Source: Nitrospirota bacterium (GTDB taxonomy: Bacteria > Nitrospirota > Thermodesulfovibrionia > Thermodesulfovibrionales > Dissulfurispiraceae). From it: a stretch of 64,000 nucleotides of DNA. Both the position numbers and the translations under genes were made by a program. Shown here one piece after another: positions 10,280 to 59,140 of this stretch. Position 1 is the first letter of the stretch. Each line of letters opens with the position of its first letter. The stretch covers positions 65,325 through 129,324 of the forward strand of contig JBFLWF010000003.1 of the NCBI GenBank assembly GCA_040758355.1. Reading direction: 5' to 3'. Below the pieces are notes generated by a model, which worked only from the letters and a program-made list of their open reading frames with translations, did not search any database and was not told where the DNA came from.

Positions 10280-10293
10280 ACCATCCTCCCATT

Positions 10294-10704: not shown

Positions 10705-10731
10705 ATCGCTATGACTTTTTTGCATAACGTT
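10705..10731. promoter_or_regulatory. Putative ModE operator
   Basis: Dyad ATCGCTATGAC-N5-TGCATAACGTT resembles the ModE consensus (atCGcTAT...ATAaCGat) and abuts the modE ATG. Confidence 0.65.
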
Positions 10732-10743
10732 GATAATAAAAAA

Positions 10744-11025: not shown

Positions 11026-11635
11026 AAGACTCGTCTTCAATGGTGTAATATCCTCCGTCTGCACATGGTTTGCACAAAATCCTTCCATCCCTGTAAACCT
11101 CCCTTATGTCCTGAACATATTCTCCGCAACTGTCGCACCTAATTCTCCTTAACGGTCTGCCGGGCATATCCTCGGGCTTTATGTCCACTTTCACATCCAT
11201 TATGTCAAAGAGATCATTATCAGACATTATCTTGTATGCCTCTAACTGAGCTTTATATTTATCCTCAATCTCCGGGAAGTACTCTTTTGCCTTATCCCTT
11301 GCATCTTCTTTTGCAATAACCCTTACAGCACTTCCTGTCTTGAGGTTCACAAAGGTAGCAGCCATCTTGCCGTAATCCATGAACTTCATCGTCCTGTGAC
11401 CAAGGCTACACCCTGTTACAGACTGCACCGCATCTGTTGCGCACCTGTCCATCTCCACAAATACAATCAGGCTCTTTCTGTCCTTGCCTTTAGGCTCTTC
11501 TATTCCAATCTTGGATAATCCGAGAATAGACATCTTGACGCCAAGAACCTGTCCGGGACAGAGATGTCCGTGAATCTTTACAGATTCTGCAAGGAGTCTT
11601 TCGAAGTCCGAATCAATTAATTTTGAGCTGCCCAT
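11015..11635 (-). CDS. fmdE: FmdE family protein with C-terminal zinc finger
   Basis: HGHLCPGQVLG, RCATDAVQSVTGCSLG, DYGKMAATF, CDSCGE...CKPC. Confidence 0.9.
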   Translation of the reverse strand: MGSSKLIDSDFERLLAESVKIHGHLCPGQVLGVKMSILGLSKIGIEEPKGKDRKSLIVFVEMDRCATDAVQSVTGCSLGHRTMKFMDYGKMAATFVNLKTGSAVRVIAKEDARDKAKEYFPEIEDKYKAQLEAYKIMSDNDLFDIMDVKVDIKPEDMPGRPLRRIRCDSCGEYVQDIREVYRDGRILCKPCADGGYYTIEDESYGK

Positions 11636-11982
11636 TCTTCTATTTTTTTGTGGATATCCTTCAATGAAAACGGTTTTTCAAAGCAGGCATCGATTTTCAA
11701 TGCCTCCATTTCTTCTTTATTCTCCTTATAAAAAGCCGATACCATAATTATCTTGCCGGCAAAACCTGCGCTCCTGAGCCTCCTGATTATATCAACCCCG
11801 CTGAAGGGTTTCATTTTTAAATCCGTAATTACTACGTCAAACTTATCGAAATTTATCAGAGAAACAGCGGCATTAGGCGAATTTGTGCCAACCACATCAT
11901 GTCCCTTTTCGGACAGATACTCCAGTAATGACGTTATAATCAGGGGCTCGTCGTCTATTATGAGTATATTTATTTCACCCAC
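11617..11982 (-). CDS. Single-domain response regulator
   Basis: ILIIDDE, VVITDLKM, MVSA, KPF. Confidence 0.9.
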   Translation of the reverse strand: MGEINILIIDDEPLIITSLLEYLSEKGHDVVGTNSPNAAVSLINFDKFDVVITDLKMKPFSGVDIIRRLRSAGFAGKIIMVSAFYKENKEEMEALKIDACFEKPFSLKDIHKKIEEWAAQN

Positions 11983-12107: not shown

Positions 12108-13085
12108 CTAAGCAAATTCAAAAGGATTATGCCCTCTAAAACCCCTTTTAATTAAAATTGCATTATTCATACAAAACCCCTCGCACAATCCGCATCCGCT
12201 GCATAAAGAGGTATTGAAAGACAATTCCCTGCTATCGCCTGCGGTTTCTATTTTTAACGCGCCTGTAGGACACATGCCTATGCAAGCAAAGCAGTTGTTG
12301 CAGTCTTCGTTTATATCGACGGTATAATAATAATTTTCAAGCAAAGCGGTGTTGTCTCCCTTTTTATAAGATATAACCCTGTTCAGCAAATCCCTCTTGA
12401 TAGGAATTTTTTTTGCTGAATATGACTGTGGCGCCATAACTTCGTCGTTCTCGAAAAACTCGGAGGCATGAAGAAATGTCAGATTTTTAATCGCCTTGAA
12501 AAATCCCCTGCGGTCGAATGAGATGTCCTGATAATACAACTCTGATCCATCTTCCACAAGGCATATCTTCTCAAATACATTCAAAGAGGTATTTTTAGTA
12601 ATACTTCCGATTCTTTTCTTCAGGGTATCGACAATGAACCCGTTCCTGCAATCGGCGCATCCCGTAAGATTAATCTGGAGCCGTCCCTCCAGGAAAACCG
12701 AAAGGGCAATAATATGATCTTCCGACAGAAAACCAAAGCAAAGAGTTCTTTCATGTGCCTTTAAATCCGCCCTCGCATTGCAGCCGAGTACGGGGGCCGG
12801 AACGGAATTGCCAGCTTTTTTTAATCTCGCGATAAGGGAATAAAAATCCGTAGCTTTTGCATCAAAGCATCCCGAAGGACATACAGATACGCATAACATG
12901 CATTCGGAACATGCATCTCTCTTGATGTCAACACCTTCGTCTATTCTGACAGCATTGAACCTGCAATGCTTAATACACTCGCTGCAGGTGCTTTTGTTAA
13001 AACGCATCCTCAAACACCTCGATTGGTCTACGGCAATCGCATCTGCTGTGTTCGACATAGTGTCGATTATTTTGCCCTGCAGCAT
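12108..13085 (-). CDS. Multi-[4Fe-4S] ferredoxin-like protein (ArrE-like)
   Basis: CSECIKHC, CSECMLCVSVCP, CNNCFACIGMCP, CSGCGLCEGFC; last gene of the arr operon. Confidence 0.85.
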   Translation of the reverse strand: MLQGKIIDTMSNTADAIAVDQSRCLRMRFNKSTCSECIKHCRFNAVRIDEGVDIKRDACSECMLCVSVCPSGCFDAKATDFYSLIARLKKAGNSVPAPVLGCNARADLKAHERTLCFGFLSEDHIIALSVFLEGRLQINLTGCADCRNGFIVDTLKKRIGSITKNTSLNVFEKICLVEDGSELYYQDISFDRRGFFKAIKNLTFLHASEFFENDEVMAPQSYSAKKIPIKRDLLNRVISYKKGDNTALLENYYYTVDINEDCNNCFACIGMCPTGALKIETAGDSRELSFNTSLCSGCGLCEGFCMNNAILIKRGFRGHNPFEFA

Positions 13086-13753
13086 TAATTTAAAACCCTC
13101 TGTGCCTTTTCGCTCATAATTTCATCAGGGATAACAGAGTTCATAATAAAGGCCGAAACACACTCGGCAAGTGCCAGGTAGAATTCATTGTCAGTGCCAT
13201 TTTTTATTTTTTCGCAGAAATTATTTATCCATAGGCCGAGAAATGAATTTAGAAATTCCTGCTGCATCTTAATAAATTTATGAGCGGTATCAATATCAGA
13301 TTTTTCCAGTGCCTCTGTCTCTTTAAATACAAGATAATACATAAATTCAAGTTCAACTGCTATATGGTCAGGCAGTTCCTTAAAATCATCATTTATTGCA
13401 AGTCCTGCCTCCCGATAGAGTTCCATTGTCTTAATCGTGGAATCCCCCATAACCTTTCTTTCCTTATCAAGATAAATCGAGCCATATGGCGGTGCGATCA
13501 GCTCATTTGGTCCTACAAAAAGTTTTGCATAATCAACTAACAGTTCTTCATTTGTATATGTCGCAATTGCTTCTTCCATCTTTTCTGCAAATACAGAGGC
13601 AGAAGAACAGACTCTTTTTAATCCCTCTGCAAGGTTTCTCAGGAGATATTCCTGCACAAAAAGAGATCTATCAGGCTGATAAAAACATGCAGATAAAAGC
13701 CTGTAACAGTCTCCTCTTATTTTTTCATTTAATATCAATTCATCGATGTTCAC
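13085..13753 (-). CDS. arrD: TorD/DmsD-family molybdoenzyme chaperone
   Basis: DYAKLFVGP, PPYGSIY, ELPDHIAVELEFM. True start is probably GTG at about 13753-13759; the longer ORF start is translated repeat DNA. Confidence 0.88.
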   Translation of the reverse strand: MNIDELILNEKIRGDCYRLLSACFYQPDRSLFVQEYLLRNLAEGLKRVCSSASVFAEKMEEAIATYTNEELLVDYAKLFVGPNELIAPPYGSIYLDKERKVMGDSTIKTMELYREAGLAINDDFKELPDHIAVELEFMYYLVFKETEALEKSDIDTAHKFIKMQQEFLNSFLGLWINNFCEKIKNGTDNEFYLALAECVSAFIMNSVIPDEIMSEKAQRVLN

Positions 13754-13794
13754 TTTCACCTCATTTGCTTGGAGTAAAAAAATTGGTGTGCGGG

Positions 13795-13862
13795 AATGGA
13801 GTAATGGAGTGATGGAGTAATGATTTTTTATACCCAACACTCCAATACTCCAACACTCCAAT
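13795..13862. repeat. Inverted pair of 8-mer arrays between arrB and arrD
   Basis: aatggagt aatggagt gatggagt aatg ... caacactc caatactc caacactc caatt. Confidence 0.85.
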
Positions 13863-13881: not shown

Positions 13882-14679
13882 TTACGCCTTCTTGGCCTCG
13901 CCCTTAAAGCTTTTTATATAATATACATTGGGCTGCGTGCCCTTTTCTCCAGGCTTTAAAAGCTCGCCCTTGTTGTTCTTAAGCTGCACAGCCTTGTGGG
14001 CTTTCAGAGCCTTGCTCGGCTCGCTGTTGGGGTCCGAAAGGTCGCCGAATATACGGGCTTTCGCAGGGCAAGATGCCACACAGTAAGGCTGCTCGCCGTT
14101 AAGAACGCGGTGCTCGCAGAACATGCACTTTTCAACTTTGCCTTTCTCTCTGACGCTCGCATAGTCCGAATGCTTATACATTGTGCGATGCGGAGGCATG
14201 TCACCAGCCTTCTTTGAGACATCAGCGCCCGATGAAGTACAACCGGGTATAACCTCTTTTGTGTCTTTATAAAAAGGATGGACTTCATCGGTAAAGTCAT
14301 TAAAACTTATAACGCTGTACTGCACGCCTGCCTTATCAACATCTTCTGAACTATAGGGACATGCCTGCTGGCACCGACGGCATCCGATGCACCTCTCCAT
14401 ATTGTGGATTGTCATGCCGTTTTCGTGTTTATGCATCGCCTTTGGAGTTACAGGACATGCCTTAACGCAAGGAGCATCTGAGCAGTGGTTGCAGAGAACA
14501 GGCATAGGAGTGAACTTCACATCCGGATACTTGCCCTCTGTTTTCATAAAGAAATCGGCCCAGTTGAATCTCTGCCCCTTCGCCCTGTCCTGAGTGTTGT
14601 TCTCTGTCTTGCATGCGATTGCACACGCACCGCAGCCGACACACTTCTGTAAGTCTATAACCATTCCGTATTTAGGCAT
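13882..14679 (-). CDS. arrB: Arsenate respiratory reductase Fe-S subunit
   Basis: Four cluster motifs (CVGCGACAIAC, CNHCSDAPCVKACP, CIGCRRCQQACPY, CMFC..PYCVASCP); CPYS insertion typical of ArrB; directly follows arrA. Confidence 0.88.
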   Translation of the reverse strand: MPKYGMVIDLQKCVGCGACAIACKTENNTQDRAKGQRFNWADFFMKTEGKYPDVKFTPMPVLCNHCSDAPCVKACPVTPKAMHKHENGMTIHNMERCIGCRRCQQACPYSSEDVDKAGVQYSVISFNDFTDEVHPFYKDTKEVIPGCTSSGADVSKKAGDMPPHRTMYKHSDYASVREKGKVEKCMFCEHRVLNGEQPYCVASCPAKARIFGDLSDPNSEPSKALKAHKAVQLKNNKGELLKPGEKGTQPNVYYIKSFKGEAKKA

Positions 14680-14698: not shown

Positions 14699-17272
14699 TT
14701 AAACCTTCTCTATTCTTACCGCGGTAAAGCCGCCGTTTCTGCAGTTGCTGCCGGTCATACGCTCAACATCAAAAGGCATGAGGTCATTGTTATTGCCGCC
14801 TCTCGGTGTCTTGTTAAATTCTTTGGTAGCAACCTTTCCGTATGCCCAGTGTCCCTGACCATAGCACTTTGAAACAGTGCCGGGCCTTACACCTTCCCAG
14901 AGCTTTGCCTTGACAGTAATGCTGCCTGTTACAGAAGTGAGCTTCACCATGTCTCCTGTCTTGATCCCGAGTTTTTTGCCGTCCTCGGGATTTATCCTCA
15001 CGATATCGTCCCAGCTCTCATCGCCAACATCTACCCTCTTGAACTCCTGGAACCATGTGGTGTTCTGGCTTCTTCCTTCCCTGTTGAGCCTTGACTTGAA
15101 GTCAACGAGGATAAACGGATATTTGACAGGGTCGCCCCATATCTTTGGCGACTCATAATGAGGCACAAATACCTCTTCGCCTTTTGCCGTATACTGGGCT
15201 GCCTCTACAATATCATCAATCGTTGTCTTATACTTTTCGGCATGGGCTTTAAGACCCGTCTTCAGTCCTTCACTGTAAAACTCAAATTTCTTAGTAAGTG
15301 TCGGGAAGCCCTTTTCCCAGAGTCCTTTGTATTTATAAGACTCTGAATTATAGATTCCCTTTGCCTTAAAGTCTTCCCAGCCGTTAAGCTGAGGGCTACC
15401 CTTAAGAGGCTCTTTTGGTTTCCATACAGGCATGCTGATGGTTTTTGCTACAATCTCTGCAAAATCCTCAGGCCCGGTAGGAGTCTTGCCGGTTTCAGGG
15501 TCTTTAAATGAATTGAAGTAATTAATCATATTCGGGAAACCCTTTTCGCCAAGCTTTTGAGCGAGCATGTACATTATCTCTGTCTCGTCAGCTTTCTCTT
15601 CCCAGAGCCTTCCGACAACAGGCTGCTGAATGGAGATATGTGTATGACCATTGCCTTTGTTGTCAATTATCGAGAGCTTCTGTGTAGCATGATGCGCTGC
15701 AGGCAATACTATATCGGCATACATCGCAGCCTCGGCAGGGTTGGTGCCGATATGGACATAAAAGACCTTTTCCATTGCCCTGTCCCATCTGTCAGCGCCT
15801 GTGCATGAGAAGTTGAAGTTTGCCCAATAGCTTATGCAGACTTTGATATCATAAGGGTCTGCATTCAATATGCCTGTTGCTGTATTATTTGTAATAACAG
15901 CAGTGCCTGGTTTGAAATTTCCCTTTTTGTCAGCGTCGGGATTAAGCGAAGGGAACTGCTTGTATCCCCTCTGGTCGATCTTTTTTTCCTTGCCGTATTT
16001 CTTTGCCATGTCATCGAGGAAAGGATCAATGGAGGGCAGTTTTCCTGATGGCGACTTTGGATGATGGGTCAATACGCCGCCCTCAACATCTATGCAGCCG
16101 AGAAGGCCGTTAATAGCATATATTGCCTGAGATGCTGCAGCACCTCTCGGGCTCATAACAGGACCGGGGCCCATCCATATCGCACACTGCGGAGCAGCAG
16201 CAGCCATTGTCTTTGCAACTTTTACAATCTGAGACTTGGAAATGCCGCAGATTTTTTCAGCCCATTCAGGTGTCCTGTCCTTGAGTTCAATGTTCCACCA
16301 TTTTACAAGACCATGTGTGTGCTTTTCTGCAAATGCAGCCTCGTCAACTGTCTTTCCTGTCTTGAACTGGTTCTTGCCGTCTTTAAAGTCTCCAACGAAC
16401 TCCTTGTTCCACAAGCCTTCTGTCAGGAGAACATGGGCTATTGCCAGTGCAAGTGCGCCGTCTTCACCTGGCTTTACAGGCACCCACATATGAGATTTTG
16501 CCCCTATAGCGCTCAATCTCGGGTCAACAGTAATAAGCGTACCTCTATCAATAAGGTCGCCAATTTTATTTATTGTGTTCGGAACGTTCCTGTTTGAGCT
16601 TAACGGGTCGCATCCCCATACTACAAGACATTTCATATTCTGAAGGTTATAATCCCTGTATCCCCAGTAGCCTTCTGTTGCAAAAGGACCAAATTTCTCG
16701 GCCTCTGCACAGATAGCACTGTGTGAGATCGAATTGGGTGAGCCTATTATCTTTGGTAATGTTCCGTAAGCAAGAGGATATGTCTTTGGTGAATATCTTC
16801 CCCTGATGAAGAGAAATTTATGCGGCTCGTTGTTTTTTCTGAGTTCGAGGAGCTTATCAGCAACTATACCCAATGCCTCATCCCATGAAATGGGAACGAA
16901 CTTTGGATCTTCTCCTCTGCCCTTTTTGGGGTTTGTCCTTTTCATAGGAACCTTCACCCTGTCTGGGTCGTAAAGCTCCTGAAGCATAAGGTGTCCTCTC
17001 GGACAGCAGTAACCGCCGTTTACCTTTGAAAGCTGGTTTCCGCGAACTTTTACAGCCCTTCCGTTCTGAACAAAAAACTCGCAAGGGCACCACTGTGTAC
17101 AGCCCTGACATGTGGATGGAACCCATTTGCCGGGATCCGTGCTGCCGCTCACCTTTTCGCCTGCAAGCGGCTTGGGCACCTGTGCAAAGGCATTAAGGGA
17201 TGGTCCTGTTAATGCCATTGCTGCGCCGGCTGCCACGCCTGCCTTAAGAAAGTCTCTTCTCTTAATCTCCAT
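14699..17272 (-). CDS. arrA: Arsenate respiratory reductase catalytic Mo-bisPGD subunit
   Basis: Tat signal KRRDFLK; CQGCTQWC cluster motif; ArrA signature RGRY; HSAICAEAEK with Tyr 12 residues after the Lys, matching the spacing of the arsenate-binding residues of Shewanella ANA-3 ArrA. Confidence 0.92.
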   Translation of the reverse strand: MEIKRRDFLKAGVAAGAAMALTGPSLNAFAQVPKPLAGEKVSGSTDPGKWVPSTCQGCTQWCPCEFFVQNGRAVKVRGNQLSKVNGGYCCPRGHLMLQELYDPDRVKVPMKRTNPKKGRGEDPKFVPISWDEALGIVADKLLELRKNNEPHKFLFIRGRYSPKTYPLAYGTLPKIIGSPNSISHSAICAEAEKFGPFATEGYWGYRDYNLQNMKCLVVWGCDPLSSNRNVPNTINKIGDLIDRGTLITVDPRLSAIGAKSHMWVPVKPGEDGALALAIAHVLLTEGLWNKEFVGDFKDGKNQFKTGKTVDEAAFAEKHTHGLVKWWNIELKDRTPEWAEKICGISKSQIVKVAKTMAAAAPQCAIWMGPGPVMSPRGAAASQAIYAINGLLGCIDVEGGVLTHHPKSPSGKLPSIDPFLDDMAKKYGKEKKIDQRGYKQFPSLNPDADKKGNFKPGTAVITNNTATGILNADPYDIKVCISYWANFNFSCTGADRWDRAMEKVFYVHIGTNPAEAAMYADIVLPAAHHATQKLSIIDNKGNGHTHISIQQPVVGRLWEEKADETEIMYMLAQKLGEKGFPNMINYFNSFKDPETGKTPTGPEDFAEIVAKTISMPVWKPKEPLKGSPQLNGWEDFKAKGIYNSESYKYKGLWEKGFPTLTKKFEFYSEGLKTGLKAHAEKYKTTIDDIVEAAQYTAKGEEVFVPHYESPKIWGDPVKYPFILVDFKSRLNREGRSQNTTWFQEFKRVDVGDESWDDIVRINPEDGKKLGIKTGDMVKLTSVTGSITVKAKLWEGVRPGTVSKCYGQGHWAYGKVATKEFNKTPRGGNNNDLMPFDVERMTGSNCRNGGFTAVRIEKV

Positions 17273-17420: not shown

Positions 17421-17436
17421 ATCAACTTTTATGCCA
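17421..17436 (-). promoter_or_regulatory. Sigma54 -24/-12 promoter of arrA
   Basis: TGGCAT-AAAAG-TTGAT on the minus strand (-12 variant GA). Confidence 0.7.
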
Positions 17437-17477
17437 TATGTAACATGTTGAAAACAAAAGGTTTATTCTTATAGATG

Positions 17478-17585
17478 TGTTACTAAAAAGAAACAGATAT
17501 AAATTAGAAATCACGTATCTGCTTCTATTGTCAATAAAAACAAGGTCTTTTCATCCAAAAATCGGAGTGTTACGATTTAGTAGCG
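17478..17585. promoter_or_regulatory. Two dyad sites (candidate ArrR boxes)
   Basis: TGTTAC-N6-GAAACA (17478-17495) and TGTTAC-N6-GTAGCG (17568-17585). Confidence 0.65.
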
Positions 17586-17636
17586 ATGACATATTCTTTA
17601 TGCTCTCAGTTCAAGAAAGGGTTTGTGTATAAAATT

Positions 17637-19376
17637 TCATATTAGCGCCTCCGGTCTGTTTGCAGCAACAACAATGTTTCTGCCTGTCTCCTTTGCAACA
17701 TAAAGGGCGTCATCTGCTGCCCGTATAATCTTTTCCGGGGAGTCTCCATCTTCAGGATAACACGCTGCACCAATGCTTACCGTTATCTTCCCTGACGGCT
17801 GTGATTCTGCCCTTGGAAATTTGTTTTTCGCGATACCGCACCTTATCCTTTCGGCTATGGATATTGCCTCATCCTTTCCTGTTTCAGGAAGCAACATGAT
17901 GAATTCTTCTCCTCCGTACCTGCTTACTGTGTCTGTTTCCCTGATATGCTCGTTCAACATATCAGCCAGCATCTTCAGCAATATGTCTCCTTGTGGATGT
18001 CCGTTTGTATCGTTGTAATGCTTGAAGTGGTCAATATCAATCATAATCAGGCCGAAATGTTTGACGTACCTCTGTGCCCTGTGTATTTCGGATTCCAGAA
18101 GTTTCAGAAATGCCCTCCGGTTTTTCAGTCCTGTAAGCCCATCTGTCTCCGAAAGCTCAAGGGTCTTTTCGTAGAGCTTTGCATTTGATACGGCAAGGCT
18201 CGCTGCATCGAGCAGACGCATGCATGCATCGAGGTCGGGTCTTGGCTCAAGCTTAGACCGCCTCGTAACATCCATAACAAATATTCCGGCAGGTGTAAAC
18301 ATATCGCAGTTCATGCATGCCTTTAATTTTTCCAGAGTGTCTGTCAGAATCCTGCCGTGGCAGTAAGTACTTGAAGTGTACCAGCATCTCCTGTCATCAG
18401 AACCATGGGCAGGACATGACGAGTCCGGAGGACAGTGAAAATATTCATAACATTTTGTTGTAAATGCTGCCCTGATAGGCAGGACTGTTATCTCCTTTGC
18501 GTCTTTAAGAAGAATCTTTATTACAACATCTTCATATTCGGAGCTTATGACAGATGTATCGAGCCACCTTGCCTCGCAACTTAAAAATGTATCTGTAAAT
18601 ATATTTTTGCCCGAAAGCGGGATAGCAATATCAGATTTATTATGAACCAGAGACACTTTGTTTTTATCCAGACGGAAGCACTCAATATTAGAACTGCCGG
18701 AAAATGCTGATAGTTCTTCTTTTGCAATCTCTATGACATCGTCCATTACAATAGAAGAACGCAGTTTCTCCGAAAGGAGGTAAAGACGTCTTATCTCATC
18801 CTGTTTTTTATACAGCCTGTCCGAGAGGTATGCGACAAAATAGGCGGTGAGAATCAATGTGCTTGCAAAAACACCTCCATATGCCGCTATCACGGAAAGG
18901 TCCGCAAAAAGCACAGGCTCATTCTTGAGTATGGCAAAATGGGGCAGGATGCCTACGTGTTTGAGCCACATAACCGCTGCAGGAAGGACTATTGCAGCAA
19001 CAGCAAACCTGAAAGTCCATTTTATCGGCAGGATGATGCCGCTTATTACAATGTGGAAGATGTAATAATATAAAAACGGGCTGTCGCATCCTCCTGAAAA
19101 ATAAACAGCAGCAGTAAGAACAATGAAGTCAAGGCTTATCTGTGCAATTGCGTTCTTTATGAGGTCTTCGGATGGAGATTTCAGCCTCTGCTGAAAATAT
19201 GCATTGTACACAGTAGTAAAGCCCAGTATCAGATATACTGGTATCAATGGAAAAGTCAGACCTGCTATCTCCCTCACCACGTGAGTTATGACAAGCACGC
19301 CGACGCAGCCTGCCCATCTGAGCCTTACAAGCCAGAGAAGCTTATCTTTCATTTCTGACTGTTCGATGGTAATCAT
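17637..19376 (-). CDS. Membrane diguanylate cyclase with a GAF-like region carrying a Cys-rich insert
   Basis: N-terminal multi-TM region; DGLTGLKNRR; DIDHFKHYND; RYGGEEF. Confidence 0.9.
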   Translation of the reverse strand: MITIEQSEMKDKLLWLVRLRWAGCVGVLVITHVVREIAGLTFPLIPVYLILGFTTVYNAYFQQRLKSPSEDLIKNAIAQISLDFIVLTAAVYFSGGCDSPFLYYYIFHIVISGIILPIKWTFRFAVAAIVLPAAVMWLKHVGILPHFAILKNEPVLFADLSVIAAYGGVFASTLILTAYFVAYLSDRLYKKQDEIRRLYLLSEKLRSSIVMDDVIEIAKEELSAFSGSSNIECFRLDKNKVSLVHNKSDIAIPLSGKNIFTDTFLSCEARWLDTSVISSEYEDVVIKILLKDAKEITVLPIRAAFTTKCYEYFHCPPDSSCPAHGSDDRRCWYTSSTYCHGRILTDTLEKLKACMNCDMFTPAGIFVMDVTRRSKLEPRPDLDACMRLLDAASLAVSNAKLYEKTLELSETDGLTGLKNRRAFLKLLESEIHRAQRYVKHFGLIMIDIDHFKHYNDTNGHPQGDILLKMLADMLNEHIRETDTVSRYGGEEFIMLLPETGKDEAISIAERIRCGIAKNKFPRAESQPSGKITVSIGAACYPEDGDSPEKIIRAADDALYVAKETGRNIVVAANRPEALI

Positions 19377-19455
19377 TGTGTTCTCTCTTTAATAATATCA
19401 AGACAGCTTGATGCCCTCTCCGGGATTTCCCTTTTCACGGCCATAGCGCCATATT

Positions 19456-21060
19456 TTATTCTGTTTCCCTTGTCTTAAACCCTGCCGTGGAGTTTCTTAA
19501 TTCCTCTGCTATCTTTGCTAATACATCGACCTCCTGCATTACATCATCTGCCATCTTCTCCATGTCTTTTGCAATGGCAGATGTCTTTTCTATGTTTCCT
19601 GCCACCTCTTCCGATGCAGCCGACTGCTCATCCACTGCAGTTGCTATTTGTGTTATCTGGTCGCGGACTTTCTGAACAGACTCCACAATGGTATCCAGAA
19701 CATTCTTCAAGTTCTTCACATGACCCACTGCCTTAGTTATACCCTTTGTGGAGGAAGACATAGACTTAGCCGTCTGCTCGGATTCAGCCTGCACTGCTCC
19801 TATCTTTTCCGAAATCTCTGTTGTTGCCTTTATTGTCCTCTCAGCTAATTTTCTTACCTCATCAGCAACAACCGCAAATCCTCTTCCCTGCTCACCTGCC
19901 CTTGCTGCCTCGATTGCTGCATTTAAGGCAAGGAGATTTGTCTGGTCTGCTATGTCTTTGATTACGGTTACTATTCCTCCAATCTCAACCACCCTGCTGT
20001 TCAGCCTTCCTACCATCCTTGAAAGCTCTGCCGTAGAAGTATTGACTTCATTTATCGTTTCAACGGTTGTGTCTGTTATCTGTTTGCCGCTTTCTGCTAT
20101 TTCCATTGCCTCTGACGATGTATCCGATGCCACAGATGCATTTTTCGCTATATCGGTGATTGTCTGGCTCATCTCTTCTGCTGCTGTTGCTATCTGGTGG
20201 GCCTGGGAGGATTGATTTTTTGCTCCTTCCGATGTCTTTTCTGACCTCGCCCCCAATACATCCACTGTGGACACCACTTTGTTTGCCGATGCGAGTATGC
20301 CGTTTATCATGCTGTTGAAGGACTGAATCATTCTGTTCATGTCGTGCGCGAGGATGCCTATTTCATCTTTACTGTGATAATCTATTGTGGCTCTCAAATC
20401 TCCTTCTGACAACTGCCTGACCTTTTCTATCAGATGAGTCAGTGGCCTGAGGGCAATTGTAACGAGAAAGAATATGGCTCCGGTTACTGACAGTATGCCC
20501 ATTAATCCGAGTCCGAAATAGAGGTTGCGGGATGATTTAATTGTGGCAAAAGAACGTGTCAGCGGTATCTTTATGCTTATGGCCCCGAGAACAGTCCCCT
20601 CTTTTACATTGTGGCAGGATAAGCAGTTTTTACCCATGTAATTAGATTTTGCGATATAGGGGGAAATGCTGCGGAGGTATTCTCCTTCAAGGAAAACCTT
20701 CTCTGTGCCCTTATCTAAAACCTCCTTTTCCACGGCATCTTTTGGGTATTCCTCGGCTTTACCCCTTCCATAATCTTTATCGAGGTTTTCCGACCTTATT
20801 ATACGGACATCTGCGATATTGGACATCTGCTCCAGAAACTGACCCTTCGATTCCTTGATTGTTCCGTTCAGCATCATGGTGGTAAGGGCATTCAGAACTG
20901 TATCTCTGTATCCTGTGAGGGTCGTGTTCTTTGCCTCATCGATGACAATGCTCTTTGTCCTGCCTGTCGTTACAAAGATTGTGACTATAATACCTATAGC
21001 GACCATCACTGTAATCGGCACCACTACCTTGTTTTTCAGAGATACATCTTTTAGATTCAT
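19456..21060 (-). CDS. Methyl-accepting chemotaxis protein with a periplasmic c-heme sensor
   Basis: CLSCH between two TM helices; [42 protein letters not shown]; start at ATG 21060 (GGAG SD). Confidence 0.93.
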
Positions 21061-21164
21061 ATTCTCCCCTCCGTTAACTAAATTACGCAAATATTACTAT
21101 TGCGTATAACAGATTGTAAAGGCTTTGAAGTACACCTGCTGTCATGACCTTGCGTAATTTGAGT

Positions 21165-21877
21165 TTAATCACTACCTTTGCCCGCCGGGCATATGATGGC
21201 CACATCAGTGCCCTTCCCTTTCTTGCTCTCTATTGTTATTCTGCCACCGTGCCTTTCCACTATACCCCTTGCTATGGAAAGACCCAGACCTGTGCTGGTT
21301 TTGTGCTGGGCGCTGAAAAACGGGTCGAAGACCTTATGTATCTCTTCCCCCGAAATCCCCTTTCCTGTGTCTGTAAAGACGATTCGCAGCAGGGCTTTTT
21401 CATCACCGCTCTCTTATATTCACCGGTGTGCGCAGCGATGCTTTTTGTTATCTCATCATTGATCCTTGAATAACTCGATTCCAACTCTGTCAAACGTCTC
21501 CGCCCTTCGCCCAGCCTTTTTTCAAGGAATAAAGAGTTAATGGAGATCAGCTTTGAGTAATACCCCATATACTCGTGTTTTATTTTATCGGCATCTTCAG
21601 GATGTGTTTTTTTTAGATTGTTTAAGTTATCAAAAACCCTGAGGGAATGCCCATCGGATTGTATGACATATTTATGATCAAGTGTTAAAATGCCGCTCTG
21701 GATGGCCCTATTGAACTCTTTGATATCGCTGTCTATCCGGTTCAGCAACTGTATTGTTTCAATTATCTGCTTCAACTGATAATTGTGAAAATAAAAAATC
21801 CAGCCAAAAGATGAAAAAACAAAAACGGCAATTAACAATATGGGCAGGATGATCTTGTTTTTTTCCGAAAGATCCAT
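21165..21877 (-). pseudogene. Internally deleted sensor histidine kinase
   Basis: TM plus periplasmic helical domain joined out of frame near 21410 to an HATPase C-terminus (IVFTDTGKGIS..IHKVFDPFFS..TGLGLSIARGIVERHGGRITIESKKGKGT..., stop at 21165); HAMP and HisKA are missing. Confidence 0.8.
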
Positions 21878-21881
21878 GCCT

Positions 21882-22367
21882 TTACCGACCTCTCCTGACA
21901 GGAATAAAGCCCTGAGCCTTCACTATCTCCTGTCCCTCCGTAATCAAAAAGAGGTCTAAGTAATTCTTTATCTTTTTATTCTCTTTCATGTATACGAGGT
22001 TCAACTCTCTCCTGATGGGATATGTACCGTTAAGCACATTCTCTTTTGTTGCTGCAACTCCGTTTAAGGCAAGAATTTTTATAGGCATTCCTTTTTCGAT
22101 CAGGGACATAGCCGTACCTACCGATACATACCCTATGGCTCCCGGCGCACCACCTACCAGCGTTACTCCCTCGAGATTAGATCCTACTTCGTATGTTTCT
22201 TTTGCAATATAGCCGTTAATTCCCTTCCGGGTACTGCAAGAATGTTCTAACCCTGTATAGTTTTCAAATAGCTCCAGCGTTGATCTTCCGGGCTGCTTCG
22301 ACACCAGACTGATCGGCTGATCCCACGTGGTTATTAATATAACGGGAAAGAATATCTTCTGAGCCAT
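21882..22367 (-). pseudogene. PstS-like binding protein lacking its N-terminal lobe
   Basis: Partial signal (MAQKIFFPVILIT) fused to mid-protein ..DQPISLVSK; C-half GAIGYVS, NGTYPIRREL, EGQEIVKAQGF. Confidence 0.7.
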
Positions 22368-22389
22368 GTCCCCTGTTTCTTATCTTTAT

Positions 22390-23394
22390 TTAAGATCGTA
22401 TAAATCGTTGAGGGTCTTTGTATTCGTGGCATTTCACGCAATCCTTCTTTGCCTGAGCCTCTGTAACCCTCCATGAATGGGGCTTGTGGCAGTCAACACA
22501 CTTCATGCTCATGCCCCTTATATGCAGCTCGTGCTTGCCTACATAGAGCTGATCGCTATGACATCGTTTAAGACAGTCACCCCAATCGGGCCGCACCTTT
22601 TTATGAGGCTTATGACACTCATAGCAGTAGAACTGCATGGGTGCATCTTTAGGCACATTTATCTTTATTGCCTTTTTTATAAGCTCCGGTGAAGGCTGGA
22701 AATATTTGGTATCTATCGTCCCTTCCTCGATCAGCTTTTTCCTTATTGATTCTTCTCCATGGCAGAACAGACACTTCTCCCTGTCGGGCCTCAAATGGGG
22801 AGTGCGGTCGGTATGGCAGTTGATGCAGGCAAGTTTTTCCATGCCTGTACCGTGAACCTCTCTGCCGGTATGGCAATTAACACAGAATCTCTCCTCGGGA
22901 AGGAAATTATGAACCACGTAGCCGTGGCATTTTGCACACTCTATCTGTTCCATAAATACATGCTTTGCATGATACCTTGAACGGTTCACTACAGGTGCAT
23001 CTGGATATCTTTTGTCCTTTTCCCAGTGGCATTGGATGCATATCTTCCATGCTACGATAATCTGTCCGTGTCTTGGTTCAACCATTTTCTGACCCATGAA
23101 TACAAACCTGTACAACTGCACCACCTGTTCCTTCTTCGTTGAATGATGACACTCGTGGCATGTAACTTCTTTGTGCACGCTCTTTGCCCATGCCTCGTTT
23201 GCATAATCATGGACGTGGCACAGGGCGCAGGCATTCGGGTCATGCTCAAAATAGTCGTTGATCTTATACCCTGTAAAACCGACGCCGATAACAAAAAGTA
23301 AAACAAAAAGGGAAATAATTATCCTTGCCTTGCGGGATAGCTTCTCTGAATACCATACAACAAGCCTGTCAAACAATTTAAATGGATTGAGCAC
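22390..23394 (-). CDS. Membrane-anchored multiheme cytochrome c (10 CXXCH + 1 CX3CH) with a NapC/NrfH-like N-terminus
   Basis: One N-terminal TM helix; CALCH, CHECH, CIQCH, CAKCH, CVNCH, CINCH, CLFCH, CYECH, CLKRCH, CVDCH, CVKCH. Confidence 0.92.
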   Translation of the reverse strand: MLNPFKLFDRLVVWYSEKLSRKARIIISLFVLLFVIGVGFTGYKINDYFEHDPNACALCHVHDYANEAWAKSVHKEVTCHECHHSTKKEQVVQLYRFVFMGQKMVEPRHGQIIVAWKICIQCHWEKDKRYPDAPVVNRSRYHAKHVFMEQIECAKCHGYVVHNFLPEERFCVNCHTGREVHGTGMEKLACINCHTDRTPHLRPDREKCLFCHGEESIRKKLIEEGTIDTKYFQPSPELIKKAIKINVPKDAPMQFYCYECHKPHKKVRPDWGDCLKRCHSDQLYVGKHELHIRGMSMKCVDCHKPHSWRVTEAQAKKDCVKCHEYKDPQRFIRS

Positions 23395-23414
23395 TTTTCA
23401 CCTTATTTAATTTT

Positions 23415-23430
23415 AGCAATTTATATGCCA
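23415..23430 (-). promoter_or_regulatory. Sigma54 promoter of the cytochrome gene
   Basis: TGGCAT-ATAAA-TTGCT, near consensus, 20 nt upstream of the GTG start. Confidence 0.85.
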
Positions 23431-23471
23431 TTTATAAATAGATGAATTAAAAGGGTTTTAAATCAAGGGGA

Positions 23472-23581
23472 GATTACGAAAAAGAAACAATAAAGTGTGT
23501 GATTTTGTTGTCTGTCTTTGTGTTTTCCTTATAAAAATCGTCTTTCTGGCAGGAGGCGAGGTTTGTTACTTTTTTGTAACA
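23472..23581. promoter_or_regulatory. Two dyad sites (candidate ArrR boxes)
   Basis: GATTAC-N6-GAAACA (23472-23489) and perfect TGTTAC-N6-GTAACA (23564-23581). Confidence 0.7.
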
Positions 23582-23633: not shown

Positions 23634-24971
23634 TCACTCTATTGCATAGGCATTCATCTTCTCCCAGAGCGTCTTTCTGCTGATTCCGAGCATTTCCGCA
23701 GCCCGGGTTTTGTTGCCCTTTGTGGTTTTTAATATTCTGATTATATGCTCTTTTTCTGCCTCTGCTGCCACATCGGAAAGGGAAAAATGTCTTTTGTCAT
23801 CACTTTTTTCGAATATAAAAGAAGGAAGGTCATCTTTCTGAATTATATCGGTAGTGGCAAGGGTTGCGCATCTCTCCACAATATTTTCGAGCTCCCTTAC
23901 ATTCCCTGGATAGTCATACCTGAGAAGGGCGTTCATTGCATCAACCGAGAAGCGGATATTTCTCGAAAGCTTGTTTGCGCATTTGCTTAAAAAGAAATCG
24001 ATAAGATTAGGCATATCTTCCTTGCGCTCCCTTAAGGGCGGAAGTGTTATAGGTATCACATTGAGGCGGTAATAAAGGTCTTCCCTGAAATTGCCTTTCT
24101 TTACCTCATCTTCGAGATTCCTGTTTGTTGCTGCAATTATCCTTACATCCACATTCAAGGTATCGGTGCCGCCTACCCTCTCAAATGTCCTTTCCTGAAT
24201 CACTCTTAAAAGTTTTGACTGGGTTGATAGGGGCAGATTGCCTATCTCGTCAAGGAAGATGGTGCCGCCATTGGCAAGTTCAAACCTCCCCGCTTTCCTT
24301 TTTATCGCACCGGTGAACGCACCCTTTTCATGGCCGAACATCTCGCTCTCTATCAGACCCTCGGGCAGTGCTGCACAGTTTACCTTTATCAGGGGTTTGT
24401 CCTTCCGCTTGCTCTGATAATGAATTGTGGTCGCTATAAGTTCCTTTCCTGTACCGCTTTCTCCGAGTATTAAGACTGTCGAATCAGACCCGGCAACCTT
24501 TTCGACCAATGAGAAGACCTTCTTCATCTCCTCACTTTCGCCGATTATATTAGGGAAACAGTAGCATCTGCTCAGGTCTTTCTTGAGCCTTATATTTTCA
24601 TCCTTAAGCCTCTTTACATCCAGGGCCCTTTCTATCAGCAAAAGGAATTCGTCCAGAGAAAACGGTTTTGTTATGTAGTCGAATGCACCGAGTTTCATCG
24701 CATCTACAGCATCTTTTATTGTGCCAAAGGCAGTCATCACAATTACCTGCGCCTCATTTGTCCTTGTAATTTGCCGTAGTATGTCGATACCGTCAATATC
24801 AGGGAGCCTTACATCGGTAACCAGCACATCGAATGAATTATCTCTCAGGAAATTTAGGGCCTCCATGCCTGTTTCAAAAGATATGACCTCATATCCTGCC
24901 GACTTAAGGGCGTCATCGAGAGTAACCCTCATCAATTTTTCGTCTTCTATTAATATAACCGTTTCATTCAT
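23634..24971 (-). CDS. Sigma54-dependent NtrC-family response regulator (ArrR-like)
   Basis: Receiver domain; GESGTGKE; GAFTGA; Fis HTH GNKTRAAEMLGISRKTLW. Confidence 0.95.
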   Translation of the reverse strand: MNETVILIEDEKLMRVTLDDALKSAGYEVISFETGMEALNFLRDNSFDVLVTDVRLPDIDGIDILRQITRTNEAQVIVMTAFGTIKDAVDAMKLGAFDYITKPFSLDEFLLLIERALDVKRLKDENIRLKKDLSRCYCFPNIIGESEEMKKVFSLVEKVAGSDSTVLILGESGTGKELIATTIHYQSKRKDKPLIKVNCAALPEGLIESEMFGHEKGAFTGAIKRKAGRFELANGGTIFLDEIGNLPLSTQSKLLRVIQERTFERVGGTDTLNVDVRIIAATNRNLEDEVKKGNFREDLYYRLNVIPITLPPLRERKEDMPNLIDFFLSKCANKLSRNIRFSVDAMNALLRYDYPGNVRELENIVERCATLATTDIIQKDDLPSFIFEKSDDKRHFSLSDVAAEAEKEHIIRILKTTKGNKTRAAEMLGISRKTLWEKMNAYAIE

Positions 24972-26440
24972 ATGCTTGGGTCTACTGGAAAGGTCAGTAT
25001 AAACTTACTGCCCTTCCCAACCTCGCTTTCAACGGAGATTTCTCCATTATAATTTCTGACTATGTCATAACTCAACCACAAGCCGAGCCCCGTTCCTTCT
25101 CCAGGAGGTTTCGTTGTAAAAAACGGGTCGAATATCTTGCCTAAATTTTCTTGAGAAATGCCCTCGCCTGTATCTATAACTTCCACTTTTATTTTCGAAT
25201 CCTCCTTATATCCCCTGACAGCCAAATATCCCTCATACTTCATGGCATGGATTGCATTTATAAAGAGATTTAAAATCACCTGATGAAAATCGTGGGGGTC
25301 AAAGATAATAAAAAGTCCGTCCTCCACCTCGTTGGCAAATTGGATATTGCCTTTCTTGAGTTTATATCCCACAAATGTGTAGACGCCGTTTATAGAATCT
25401 TTGATATTAATGCTGATGGGCGTGTGGTCTCCTTTCCTGGACATCCACAAAAGCTTGCTTACGGTATTTTCTATCCGGTCAAGCCCCTCTTTTATCAGAT
25501 CCAGATATTTTCCCCTTAATTCAGGATTATTGCCGTTGAGCTTCAAGATCTGCACGCAGTTAAATACTCCTCCGAGAGGATTGTTTATCTCATGGGCAAC
25601 GCCTGCGGCAAGTATGCCTACGGATGCAAGCTTTTCTGATTGTACCAGCTTTTCATGGGTTTTTCTGAGTTCTTCGTTTGCCTGCTTTATCCTCTCTATC
25701 ATGTTATTAAACCTCTCGCCGAGGACGGCAAGCTCATCATGTCCCTTCACCTCAACTTTGACATCGAGATAGTCGCCCCCTGTTTTTTCCATGGTAGCGG
25801 CAAGCTGTGTTATGGGGCTTATAAAGCGGTTGCTCAAGAGAAGTATGACGCCGAACCCTGCAATAATAAGGAACAATGTGAGAATGATAATCTTTTTAAT
25901 GGAGGCAACAATCTCCTTTTCGACCTTTTCGAGGGATATTGCGAACTTCAATGTTCCCCAACGCTTTTTCCCTATAGAAAGCGGGACCCCGAAATCGAGG
26001 GCATTATGTCCGCTGTGCGAAAAACTGTGTATTACGGCATCATTTGCTTGTAATGCCTTTACAGTTGAGGGGTCTGAATATATCTTTCCGTACTCCGCAA
26101 TATTGTTGTGAGATATTATCTTTCCCTCCTCATCCAGAATAGCTATGTAAATCAAATCCACATCGCGCCTGTTGAATATCTCCATTATGTAATTATCGAG
26201 CAAGCCGCCTTCCTCCACCAATCCAAGCCTTTCATAAATGAGGTCGTTGATTATCGGTATGGCGAGGGTCTCTCCAAGCAATCGTCCCTGCCTTTCGACC
26301 TCGGTGTATAGTATATTCTTTCCTCTCTGGACAGCCATATAACCTATTATCCCCATGAGAAGTATAATGGCTACTGTCGTAATCAAAATGAATTTAGACC
26401 TCAGACTTAATCTTGAGAAAAAAGCAGTAATCGTATTCAT
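24968..26440 (-). CDS. Sensor histidine kinase (ArrS-like)
   Basis: 2 TM, HAMP, AHEINNPL, FFTTKPPGEGTGLGL; overlaps both neighbours by 4 nt. Confidence 0.93.
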   Translation of the reverse strand: MNTITAFFSRLSLRSKFILITTVAIILLMGIIGYMAVQRGKNILYTEVERQGRLLGETLAIPIINDLIYERLGLVEEGGLLDNYIMEIFNRRDVDLIYIAILDEEGKIISHNNIAEYGKIYSDPSTVKALQANDAVIHSFSHSGHNALDFGVPLSIGKKRWGTLKFAISLEKVEKEIVASIKKIIILTLFLIIAGFGVILLLSNRFISPITQLAATMEKTGGDYLDVKVEVKGHDELAVLGERFNNMIERIKQANEELRKTHEKLVQSEKLASVGILAAGVAHEINNPLGGVFNCVQILKLNGNNPELRGKYLDLIKEGLDRIENTVSKLLWMSRKGDHTPISINIKDSINGVYTFVGYKLKKGNIQFANEVEDGLFIIFDPHDFHQVILNLFINAIHAMKYEGYLAVRGYKEDSKIKVEVIDTGEGISQENLGKIFDPFFTTKPPGEGTGLGLWLSYDIVRNYNGEISVESEVGKGSKFILTFPVDPSI

Positions 26441-28137
26441 AACCTTATCTTTGGATGGCAGCCCTTACCGCATGTCTGGGGCACTGCATTAATCTTCGCC
26501 CGTATATCAGCATAATCTTTATCCGACGCCTCCATGAAACCATTTCTGAAGTCATCATCGAGCCTTTTTAATATCTTCTGATGGTTTGAGCTGTTGGGAT
26601 CCAGATCAAGCAATGCCTTTTTTATATTCTCTATCATGGCAAAAGGCGTACCCGGGCCTACGACAAGGGGGCCTGTTGGGATGTCAGGAGATTCGGCTAT
26701 TACCTCGATGCCGAGTTTCATATATTTCCTTGCCACCGAATCGCGCACAGCACCCGCATCGTACTGCCCCTTCAAAACCGCCTTGACAACCGAGTCATGA
26801 TAATCGAAATTAGCATAACCGCCCAGCTCATTAAGGTGAATTCCTGAGTTTGCAAGGAGATAGCGGGGCATTAAATTTCCTGATGTTGATTTGGAAGCCG
26901 AAAAAGCCATGATCTTTCCTTTTAGTCCATTGGTATCGTTTACAGATGAATCCCTTCTCTTTATTATTACGCTCTTATAGGAGGCATTACCGTCGATTCC
27001 CCTCGGTTTAAGTATGCATATGGCCCCGTATTTTGCGCGTGCTTCGAGGTATGTCAGAGGGCCGAGAAGCGCAACCTCAACTTCTCCGCGGCCAAGGGCC
27101 TCCACAGTGTCTTCATAATTTTTCTTTATAACAAGCTCATATGCGTAGGGCGTCTTTTCGGAGAGGTAGTCAAGGAGCGGCTGGTATTTTTCGTATAATA
27201 TTCTCGGGTTGTCCCTCGGTATTACGCCGAAAGAAACCATTTTTTTACCATTCGTCTTTTTAGCCACCATAACATCATTTTTAATAGAGCGCTCCATTTC
27301 CCTTATTGAATCATAAGCACTGTCCGATATCTGCACAAAACCGTCTATCATCATGTCGTTAAGTATTGCGGCCCCCTTTGCTGTTTTATGCATGTTCAAG
27401 AAGGCATCCCTTATTTTTTTCTTGAGATTCTCATCGATGTCTTTAGTTACTACAACAGGAGGGATTCCATACGGCGGCGATCTTTTTATGACCTTAGTCT
27501 GTTTTGCATAGGGCGAGCCCTTCTTTACCATATATTCATAGACAATGCTTTCGACAGCAGCGCCGTCTACAACCTTTTTAGCTACCAGCTCCACTGATTT
27601 ATTATGGCTGTAGCTGTACATAACCCTCTTAAAAAATTTCTCGGGGGTAAATCCCATTGTCTTCAACAGATGTGTAGGATACAGTTTGCCTGTGTTGGAT
27701 TTGGGATCGGTAAAGGCGAAAAACTTACCTTTCAACTCGGGAAAGGACTGAACCGGACTATCCTTATGGACAATTATGTATGAATGATATGATGCCTTCC
27801 CGTTTACGCTTGGGGCAACGAGGATCTCGACGCCGAATTTCTCGCGGTTTTTAACATACGGCGCAGAACAAATAAATGCAACTTTAACTTCCCCTCTTTC
27901 GAGCATTGTGTCCATCTCGTCATATGTCCTTCTGTGAACCATCTGTACAGGCTGTTTTATCTGCTCGCCTATGTAATCGATTATTTCCTGATAATACTTG
28001 ACAGCGTCGACAGGCGTAATCATCGATGATACGCCGATTTTGATTGTATTGTCCTGCTGCGATAAAGAGTCGTGAGGGAGGCAAAAGACCGAAACAAAAA
28101 CAAACAAAAGAAGTAAAATTAAATTGAAGCGTCTCAT
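26437..28137 (-). CDS. Tandem PhnD/AioX-like oxyanion-binding protein (ArrX-like)
   Basis: Signal peptide; two PhnD-fold domains (FICSAPY..FTDPKSNTG..YSHNKSV and LLGPLTY..FSASKSTSG..YHDSVV); C-terminal CGKGCH. Confidence 0.85.
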   Translation of the reverse strand: MRRFNLILLLLFVFVSVFCLPHDSLSQQDNTIKIGVSSMITPVDAVKYYQEIIDYIGEQIKQPVQMVHRRTYDEMDTMLERGEVKVAFICSAPYVKNREKFGVEILVAPSVNGKASYHSYIIVHKDSPVQSFPELKGKFFAFTDPKSNTGKLYPTHLLKTMGFTPEKFFKRVMYSYSHNKSVELVAKKVVDGAAVESIVYEYMVKKGSPYAKQTKVIKRSPPYGIPPVVVTKDIDENLKKKIRDAFLNMHKTAKGAAILNDMMIDGFVQISDSAYDSIREMERSIKNDVMVAKKTNGKKMVSFGVIPRDNPRILYEKYQPLLDYLSEKTPYAYELVIKKNYEDTVEALGRGEVEVALLGPLTYLEARAKYGAICILKPRGIDGNASYKSVIIKRRDSSVNDTNGLKGKIMAFSASKSTSGNLMPRYLLANSGIHLNELGGYANFDYHDSVVKAVLKGQYDAGAVRDSVARKYMKLGIEVIAESPDIPTGPLVVGPGTPFAMIENIKKALLDLDPNSSNHQKILKRLDDDFRNGFMEASDKDYADIRAKINAVPQTCGKGCHPKIRL

Positions 28138-59129: not shown

Positions 59130-59140
59130 AATAAACCTCC

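Follow-up and report, generated by a model that had tools for sequence, protein, structure and literature searches.

The window analysed here, a stretch of 64,000 nucleotides from a Nitrospirota draft genome (contig JBFLWF010000003.1, positions 65,325 to 129,324), encodes a respiratory arsenate reductase operon (arr) in a cluster with two tandem sigma54 promoters, P2 before arrA and P1 upstream of it, each equipped with the same pair of operator dyads. Beyond P1 lie the genes of an ArrX-like periplasmic sensor, a histidine kinase and an NtrC-type activator (X-S-R trio). These three proteins probably form an arsenic-oxyanion switch for both promoters, whereby we infer binding, ligand, co-induction and the route of the electrons. 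We are highly confident that the enhancer-promoter unit is real and strongly conserved and that, as its distribution predicts, it is read by the adjacent activator; given such reading, a response of the unit to an arsenic oxyanion is rather likely.

Two matching promoters at the arr locus

Both promoters and all four dyads described in the first-pass annotation were located on the minus strand, the dyads at offsets of 42 and 132 bp (P2) and of 42 and 134 bp (P1) (Table 1). The palindrome at 23564 is free of mismatches, as had been stated, and represents the sole perfect copy in the 2.77-Mb source genome (G000; 93 contigs, a draft of 99% completeness). Measured against the AioR-type box GTTNC-N6-GNAAC (GTT-N10-AAC), the dyads at 17478 and 23564 fit exactly and those at 17568 and 23472 with one mismatch each. 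Five bp upstream of the -24 box both promoters carry a site resembling the consensus of integration host factor (IHF), WATCAA-N4-TTR; such a site with two mismatches at most was found in 59 of 66 related promoters compared with 7 of 66 at a control offset. The -12 element reads TGA or TGT instead of TGC in 36 of the 66. The source genome encodes rpoN and four genes of the HU/IHF family.

For the searches the layout was defined as strict (dyads at 40-43 and 119-136) or loose (a near-perfect dyad at another offset), and two and three of 8366 tiles of the source genome, respectively, passed these tests. Sites of the type TGTTAC-N6-GTAACA occur there once without mismatch, five times with one, 40 times with two and 637 times with three mismatches, for which reason the dyad at 23472 is weak when taken alone and counts only through its position. 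The 18-mers at offset 42 of P1 and P2 share 15 of 18 bases, the best value among 378 pairs from 28 AT-rich sigma54-like sites (runner-up 13). A genome-wide scan as proposed in the first-pass annotation found the layout at P1 and P2 only among 1136 sigma54-like sites. Scored over the same sites, a matrix that is partly circular, being built from 66 promoters of relatives chosen by the motif, gave the two promoters 62.6 and 52.1. The third-best site reached -11.2, and a wider regulon was rejected on this ground. As only two of the 1136 sites have the layout, the regulon in this genome consists of P1 and P2, within the limits of a draft of this completeness. Individual candidates were likewise dismissed: C10:34916 and C6:109026 are without the promoter layout, and C8:95415-95449 is a series of 11-bp direct repeats upstream of pstS. 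The latter region (C8:95415-95454, L007:7416-7455) holds three 11-bp direct repeats of TGTTACA, a half-site in common with the dyad, within a pstS-pstC-pstA-pstB-phoU cluster and is presumably Pho-box-like.

The first-pass assignment of arrA was also upheld. The protein matches the structure 6cz7 with 932 bits over residues 45-857 (next structure 155 bits), and its best NCBIfam family is the ArrA family NF041714 with 1053.5 bits, below the cut-off of 1600 (next family 266 bits). ArrA is marked by (R/K)GRY and ArxA by XGRGWG (PMC6549141); the motif found here is FIRGRYS, and an identity of 14699-17272 as ArxA was rejected on the RGRY motif. To judge by its sequence, the gene encodes a true ArrA, for which arsenate reduction is predicted. 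The arr operon of the source genome contains no membrane anchor of the NrfD/ArrC type.

ArrA shares 92% identity with that of the relative G038 but only 62% with its counterparts in G035 and G036 from the same genus, while arrB, ferredoxin and regulators reach 75-93%; from this difference the catalytic subunit appears to have been swapped within the genus. Downstream of the operon follow CheY-like, FmdE-like, ModE and MoeA-like genes (9146-11982), which recur alike behind Arr, Ttr-like and Psr-like enzymes, and tatA and tatC are found just downstream of the arr region (7173-8243).

Table 1. Features of the arr locus, with positions in the window and offsets of the dyads from the promoter edge
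Feature	Position	Strand	Offset (bp)	Remarks
Polyferredoxin	12108-13085	-		no NrfD/ArrC anchor beside it in the operon
TorD-family chaperone (arrD)	13085-13861	-		family match
arrB, Fe-S subunit	13882-14679	-		best family ArrB, 249 bits, below cut-off of 450
arrA, catalytic Mo subunit	14699-17272	-		twin-arginine translocation (TAT) signal, CQGCTQWC, RGRY
sigma54 -24/-12 promoter P2 (arrA)	17421-17436	-		box TGGCATAAAAGTTGAT; -12 element TTGA, canonical TTGC
IHF-like site of P2	17441-17453	-		1 mismatch to WATCAA-N4-TTR
Proximal dyad of P2	17478-17495		42	1/12 mismatch to TGTTAC-N6-GTAACA
Distal dyad of P2	17568-17585		132	2/12 mismatches to TGTTAC-N6-GTAACA
Membrane diguanylate cyclase (GGEEF)	17637-19376	-		absent from this place in G035
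Methyl-accepting chemotaxis protein (MCP)	19456-21060	-		one CxxCH in sensor domain
Broken histidine kinase gene	21168-21877	-		residues 159-344 of the G035 protein gone; two frames
PstS-like binding protein remnant	21882-22367	-		match to the intact G035 protein confined to residues 141-289
Membrane-anchored multiheme cytochrome c	22390-23394	-		10 CxxCH and 1 CxxxCH; duplicate of the C11 gene
sigma54 -24/-12 promoter P1 (upstream)	23415-23430	-		box TGGCATATAAATTGCT; kept in G035 and G038
IHF-like site of P1	23435-23447	-		2 mismatches to WATCAA-N4-TTR
Proximal dyad of P1	23472-23489		42	3/12 mismatches (GATTAC...GAAACA)
Distal dyad of P1	23564-23581		134	perfect TGTTAC-N6-GTAACA
NtrC/AtoC-type sigma54 activator	23634-24971	-		recognition helix GISRKTLWEKM, AioR/ArxR type
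Sensor histidine kinase	24968-26440	-		sCache-HAMP-HisKA-HATPase
Two-domain periplasmic oxyanion sensor	26437-28137	-		N-domain ArrX/AioX-like with C90; C-domain PtxB/PhnD-like without Cys

The adjacent activator and the distribution of the dyad

Domain and profile matches bore out all three of the neighbouring proteins that had been named initially, the NtrC-type activator, the kinase and the oxyanion-binding protein. The activator carries a Sigma54_activat domain (E 2.9e-76) and is therefore not of the CitB/FixJ type of the Chrysiogenes arsenatis ArrR; an AAA+ activator combined with an RpoN promoter is the arrangement of AioR/ArxR-type regulons. The X-S-R cluster lies 6.3 kb from arrA in the source genome and immediately upstream of it in many relatives.

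The layout was followed through 390 genomes of the class, which are related by kinship, so that the counts are not independent. ArrA was detected in 45 of them (46 matches), and 40 of the 45 matches outside the source genome were examined. An orthologous regulator stands upstream at 21 arrA loci (window included), in many cases directly before arrA (e.g., G036, G316, G285 and G003), and 20 of these 21 carry the dyads, 17 in the strict and three in the loose layout. Six loci have another activator upstream. Five of these show a sigma54 site without dyads, four of them with the recognition helix GITRVTLRKK; at the sixth (G307) dyads are present, and an orthologue of the regulator is encoded on another contig. 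Among the 14 loci with no activator in view one passed the loose test, dyads were seen in G026 in a separate inspection, and two lacked upstream sequence. The loci L047, L048, L052 and L072 represent a second arr system of the class, in which a one-domain sensor with best match to ArrX (pocket YCYSLSHD) is combined with a different activator and a 10-11-heme cytochrome of 450-464 aa is encoded directly before arrA.

The exact promoter pattern occurs in 34 of the 390 genomes (reversed control: 0/390), namely in 29 of the 76 with the regulator and in five of the other 314. Across GTDB it was found at 57 loci (two pairs overlap, one contig each), the named records being mostly Nitrospirota/Thermodesulfovibrionales: a molybdoenzyme follows at 45, five are cut by contig ends or head a signalling block and seven are apparently due to chance. 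The TG of the -12 element, which the pattern leaves unspecified, is present at 47 of the 57.

The helix GISRK[TNS]LWEK is conserved in 84 of 86 orthologues of the regulator and returns with small changes in AioR and ArxR, and within the source genome ISRKTLWEK is unique to the neighbouring regulator among 28 activators extracted. Because the layout tracks the regulator (20 of 21 arrA loci) and its recognition helix, the dyad is the predicted site of the neighbouring regulator. What speaks against this assignment is that two other activators of the genome have near-identical helices (ITRKSLWEK and ISRKVLWKK), that the regulator is only 37-40% identical to AioR/ArxR and falls into a separate clade of a quick tree, in which four of the five reference rows were marked as unusual in composition, and that the matrix is circular in part. 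A search of plasmids with the regulator returned generic NtrC proteins only.

It is very improbable that P1 is a mere relic of promoter duplication, or that its dyads are bound by another activator, in which cases the match would not mean co-regulation by the neighbour. Aligned in register, the two upstream regions do agree at 36 of their first 60 positions, yet identity between the dyads drops to 25 of 70 while the dyads themselves persist. P1 has a proximal dyad with three mismatches and two broken genes behind it, but its canonical sigma54 box and perfect distal dyad are kept in G000, G035 and G038, and loci with two promoters recur in G081 and G300. The similar helices of the two other activators stand against the class-wide observation that the dyad follows the neighbouring regulator and was not found near other activators. 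The first-pass reading of the dyad as the ArrR binding site thus gains comparative support as far as the adjacent regulator is concerned, and loses the specificity implied by the name, as 31 of 52 orthologues front non-Arr enzymes.

The block behind P1 and its cytochrome

A split regulon, composed of a distant cytochrome gene and the arr genes, had been proposed initially. Both promoters can be placed in one regulon, but the gene is not distant: it heads a block inserted between regulator and arrA, and the locus is therefore one cluster with two tandem promoters. Tandem matching promoters are present in five genomes (G000, G035, G038, G081 and G300). The genes behind P1 encode a PstS-like protein, a kinase and an MCP in three genomes (the first two being remnants in G000), a CheY-like protein and a kinase in G081, and ArrX-like proteins with an MCP-like gene in G300. 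Judging from this gene content, the steady cargo of P1 is a set of signalling genes inserted between regulator and arrA. P2 is taken to be ancestral because the single promoter of G036 resembles it. A terminator scan yielded none above shuffled controls and, as a weak test, no minus-strand intergenic terminator from P1 to arrA.

The cytochrome is apparently a passenger, a duplicate of a cytochrome that is common in the class, because it is found at this locus in G000 and G035 only, its family is class-wide (170 of 390 genomes), and G038 retains both promoters without it. The claim that it defines the regulon was abandoned on these grounds. A paralogue of 77% identity is encoded on contig C11 in a cytochrome-tetraheme cytochrome-4Fe-4S-NrfD-TorD operon, for which the matrix and dyad scan detected no dyad promoter of its own. 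Among the best 30 of more than 190 loci of the family (1.5-kb flanks), 28 adjoin the tetraheme cytochrome gene of a cyt-NrfC-NrfD operon and two, those of G000 and G035, behind P1.

A dedicated ArrR regulon of cytochrome and arrABD-ferredoxin, with the cytochrome as obligate electron donor module, is an improbable alternative, which would account for the cytochrome as first gene behind P1 in G000 and G035, for its intact state (94%) while the next two genes decayed in G000, and for an arr operon without ArrC. It could also point to a 44% homologue inside the arr operon of G276 and to other arr loci with a different 10-11-heme cytochrome of 450 aa. The distribution of the family and the promoters of G038 argue against it, as do G036 and most relatives, in which the regulator is followed directly by arrA.

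Even as a passenger, the cytochrome could plausibly carry electrons, because there is no ArrC, the gene is intact amid decay and the G276 operon holds the homologue; tentatively, and with some doubt, it may pass electrons from the C11 NrfC/NrfD module to the anchorless ArrAB. In Shewanella ANA-3, ArrAB relies on a separate cytochrome such as CymA. That enzyme (PDB 6cz7) shares the RGRY motif and the lack of ArrC in the operon with the one studied here, which differs in standing under a sigma54 X-S-R system and in a candidate cytochrome with 11 heme motifs. In the test for NapC/NrfH/CymA quinol dehydrogenases, which are recognised by a membrane-anchored tetraheme domain for quinol oxidation, this cytochrome gave a weak match to TIGR03153 (38 bits over residues 27-162), far below the NrfH cut-off of 134. 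It has no sequence match in the PDB. Structure models were of low confidence (predicted local distance difference test, pLDDT, 38 from the single sequence and 59 from an alignment); Foldseek returned no match at E 0.001, and VIA-align of the model with pLDDT 59 reached a best Z of 4.6 over the N-terminal helices only, which is uninformative.

Two other signalling proteins of the region, the MCP and a GGDEF-EAL protein encoded upstream of the sensor (28192-30774), have one CxxCH each in the periplasmic domain, which suggests that they may be heme-c redox sensors. The diguanylate cyclase has a 70% paralogue on contig C46 (L004:2822-4570), which is likewise encoded directly behind an MCP gene. 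At the far end of the window (57167-64000) an integron-integrase-like open reading frame (57167-58480, judged by eye) is followed by short opposite-strand reading frames resembling a cassette array.

Client enzymes, ligand and known systems

The regulator was found in 76 of the 390 genomes, and 57 of its 80 matches were examined, chiefly in genomes without arrA. A non-Arr enzyme is encoded within 7 kb at 28 of these loci; another 28 show no visible enzyme, many being cut by contig ends. Where the enzyme lies within 3.5 kb (28 loci, 27 of them non-Arr and one Arr), the strict or the loose dyad test is passed throughout. Altogether, an enzyme is encoded within 9 kb of 52 distinct orthologues, ArrA in 21 cases and in the other 31 a Ttr-like (~1030 and ~1070 aa) or Psr/Phs-like (776-948 aa) molybdoenzyme, all of the latter two types scoring under the NCBIfam cut-offs. 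In a quick tree of the 52 regulators, which omitted 34 orthologues without visible enzyme, the client label switches 18 times, and a single arrA clade is rejected (p-AU, approximately unbiased test, 2e-31). With non-Arr enzymes behind 31 of 52 orthologues, and with no single clade for those linked to arrA, the regulator is, as far as gene neighbourhoods tell, not arr-specific. Sensor trio and promoter rather behave as a fixed socket that has repeatedly received different enzymes of the dimethyl sulfoxide (DMSO) reductase family, class-wide. A plasmid search with a Psr-like enzyme gave PhsA matches at 29-30% only.

Contig C12 of the source genome (50000-69999; L001) holds a related arrangement without dyads: a binding protein, a kinase, an activator, a sigma54 site with TTGA and a CheY-like gene are followed by an MCP 84% identical to that of the window, cytochrome-FeS-NrfD genes and a TtrA-like enzyme accompanied by ferredoxin and TorD. 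Proteobacterial X-S-R trios in which the AioX pocket is complete face NrfC/NrfD/Psr-like enzymes at L257 (a plasmid of Azoarcus sp. KH32C), L109, L124 and L105, one of them adjoining an ars operon; the enzymes beside these trios are further candidates for non-Arr, non-Aio arsenic enzymes.

The sensor of the window comprises 566 aa in two domains and thereby departs from the single domain of ~300 aa of X-S-R systems; 68 of 71 orthologous sensors longer than 250 aa exceed 500 aa. Residues 31-285 match ArrX (6x6b, 169 bits) better than AioX (136-139 bits); for residues 302-466 the match is PtxB (91 bits). At the positions of the AioX pocket, domain 1 has Y72, C90, Y117, S147, N148, T149, H178 and E196, while in domain 2 a G stands where domain 1 has the Cys. 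Five of the seven pocket residues of AioX (Y88, C106, Y131, S161, S163, H192 and D210) are identical, which suffices for an AioX-type pocket, and orthologues alternate between S/T and D/E. The N-terminal loop SSMITP belongs to the short ArrX type (loop types as given in PMC5908839).

An alternative, which we regard as unlikely, accepts the link between regulator and dyad and lets the sensor read sulfur or other oxyanion(s) (tetrathionate, thiosulfate, selenate or phosphate), arr being then one of the clients of a general switch for oxyanion respiration. The Ttr-like and Psr/Phs-like enzymes behind 31 of 52 orthologues agree with it, but ArrX remains the best match of the sensors from one Ttr-type and one Psr-type locus (170 and 158 bits). 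Core ars genes were detected in the examined 4-31 kb at 6 of 28 non-arr loci (acr3 in five) and at two of 20 arr loci, against two of 192 20-kb tiles of the source genome; at L167 an arsR-acr3-arsD-arsA cluster lies between regulator and Psr-like enzyme. Sensor domain 2 and the binding protein before the C12 Ttr-like locus show 45% identity and agree at seven of eight pocket positions, and the whole sensor weakly matches the TtrS model (residues 30-208); on the other side, isothermal titration calorimetry showed binding of neither tetrathionate nor thiosulfate by ArrX (PMC5908839). Ttr-type proteins are abundant in, and tied to, thiosulfate disproportionation (PMC9751629), whereas in Melioribacter, where an ArrTSR trio precedes a ttr locus, arsenate raises Ttr- and Psr-type transcripts, significantly only for the Psr-type (PMC5492636).

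Besides this link to sulfur, several further observations weigh against an arsenic ligand. An arrA gene is present in just 25 of the 76 genomes that encode the regulator. The sensor pocket reads YCYSN[ST]H[DE] regardless of the client, Ttr-like and Psr-like enzymes included, and in the window two of its residues deviate from AioX (T for S163, E for D210). The specificity of X sensors depends on more than the pocket residues (PMC5908839), and no acr3 or ars operon is present at this locus, acr3 being encoded on C15. An arsenic oxyanion nevertheless remains the ligand we favour.

Under that reading, a ligand, most likely arsenate, would bind the Cys-bearing domain of the sensor and the kinase would phosphorylate the activator, whose dimers would occupy the paired GTTAC-N6-GTAAC boxes ~42 and ~132 bp upstream. 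IHF would bend the DNA beside the -24 element, and sigma54 polymerase would open at P1 and P2. The ancestral P2 travels with arrA-arrB-arrD-ferredoxin, while P1 heads the inserted signalling block (binding protein and kinase, broken in G000; MCP; cyclase or kinase), to which the duplicate of the common multiheme cytochrome was added in G000 and G035.

Parts of this system are familiar, and the first-pass claim of an undescribed module does not hold in this form. Two AioR sites were proposed upstream of aioBA, with GTTNC-N6-GNAAC in Burkholderiales (PMC3673622); the AioR box GTT-N10-AAC is known, and a footprint places AioR on a related site in front of an mcp gene (PMC5335332); the ArxR site starts with gtaaca, and arrXSR trios beside arr have been described (PMC5908839). 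With AioXSR and ArxXSR the locus shares the X-S-R order, a Cys-bearing sensor of the PhnD fold, an AtoC/NtrC-type activator, an RpoN promoter, two GTT-N10-AAC boxes, a similar recognition helix and a second target promoter including an mcp gene (PMC5908839, PMC3673622, PMC5335332). The activators of five plasmid loci end in ISRTTLWEKM, ITRKNLWEKM, ISRKTLWEKM, ISRKSLWEKM and ITRKTLWEKM. Three of these are aio loci with boxes upstream of the sigma54 site, and the aio promoter of Hydrogenophaga carries GTTACAAAAAAGTAAC, the core of the site at 23564; at the other two the scripted scan found no sigma54 site. Differences from AioXSR/ArxXSR concern the target (ArrA or Ttr/Psr-like enzymes), the sensor (a two-domain fusion with ArrX-type loop), the box offsets (~42 and 132 bp compared with 51/84, 84 and 67/110 in the three aio loci) and the regulator, which falls into another clade of the quick tree.

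Among solved structures, domain 1 is closest to ArrX of the C. arsenatis ArrXSR (ArrTSR), with which it shares the short SSMI[ST]P loop and the position beside arrAB; in the account of that system, however, ArrR is of the CitB/FixJ type without AAA+ and has another predicted site, no RpoN promoter was detected and ArrX has one domain, while the epsilonproteobacterial ArrR is of the AtoC type, as here (PMC5908839). The ArrTSR-ttr locus of Melioribacter roseus likewise has an X-S-R trio before a Ttr-like enzyme beside an ars operon and is a precedent for non-Arr clients; it concerns one organism, the section on this locus gives no operator motif, and the client in the window is a true ArrA (PMC5492636). 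Already known are thus the dyad, which fits the AioR box, and the X-S-R sensor trios. New are the two-domain ArrX-like sensor, the fixed promoter geometry with its IHF-like site and the repeated swapping of enzymes. The main texts of the literature searched, which included few subscription papers, contained no account of this operator layout for arr or of the two-domain sensor in Nitrospirota.

Arsenic in aquifers becomes mobile through respiratory arsenate reduction, and the switching of arr outside a few model organisms is largely inferred. The locus defines precisely, and in testable form, how operator and promoter are spaced in an arr operon, with an AioR-type box in use. Since molybdoenzymes other than ArrA stand behind this switch more often than ArrA does, it also yields a list of Ttr/Psr-like enzymes that are candidates for the respiration of arsenic or antimony. 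A bolder and distinctly more doubtful proposal is that the socket senses arsenic throughout the class, in Nitrospirota and some Desulfobacterota/Myxococcota, and that the swapped Ttr-like and Psr/Phs-like enzymes, which occupy 31 of 52 loci and fall into at least five groups, are hitherto unrecognised reductases of arsenate, thioarsenate or antimonate. If this were true, the cell could use the fused second sensor domain to balance arsenate against phosphate or some other oxyanion, and the operator would serve as a sequence marker for arsenic respirers that are missed by arrA surveys of groundwater.

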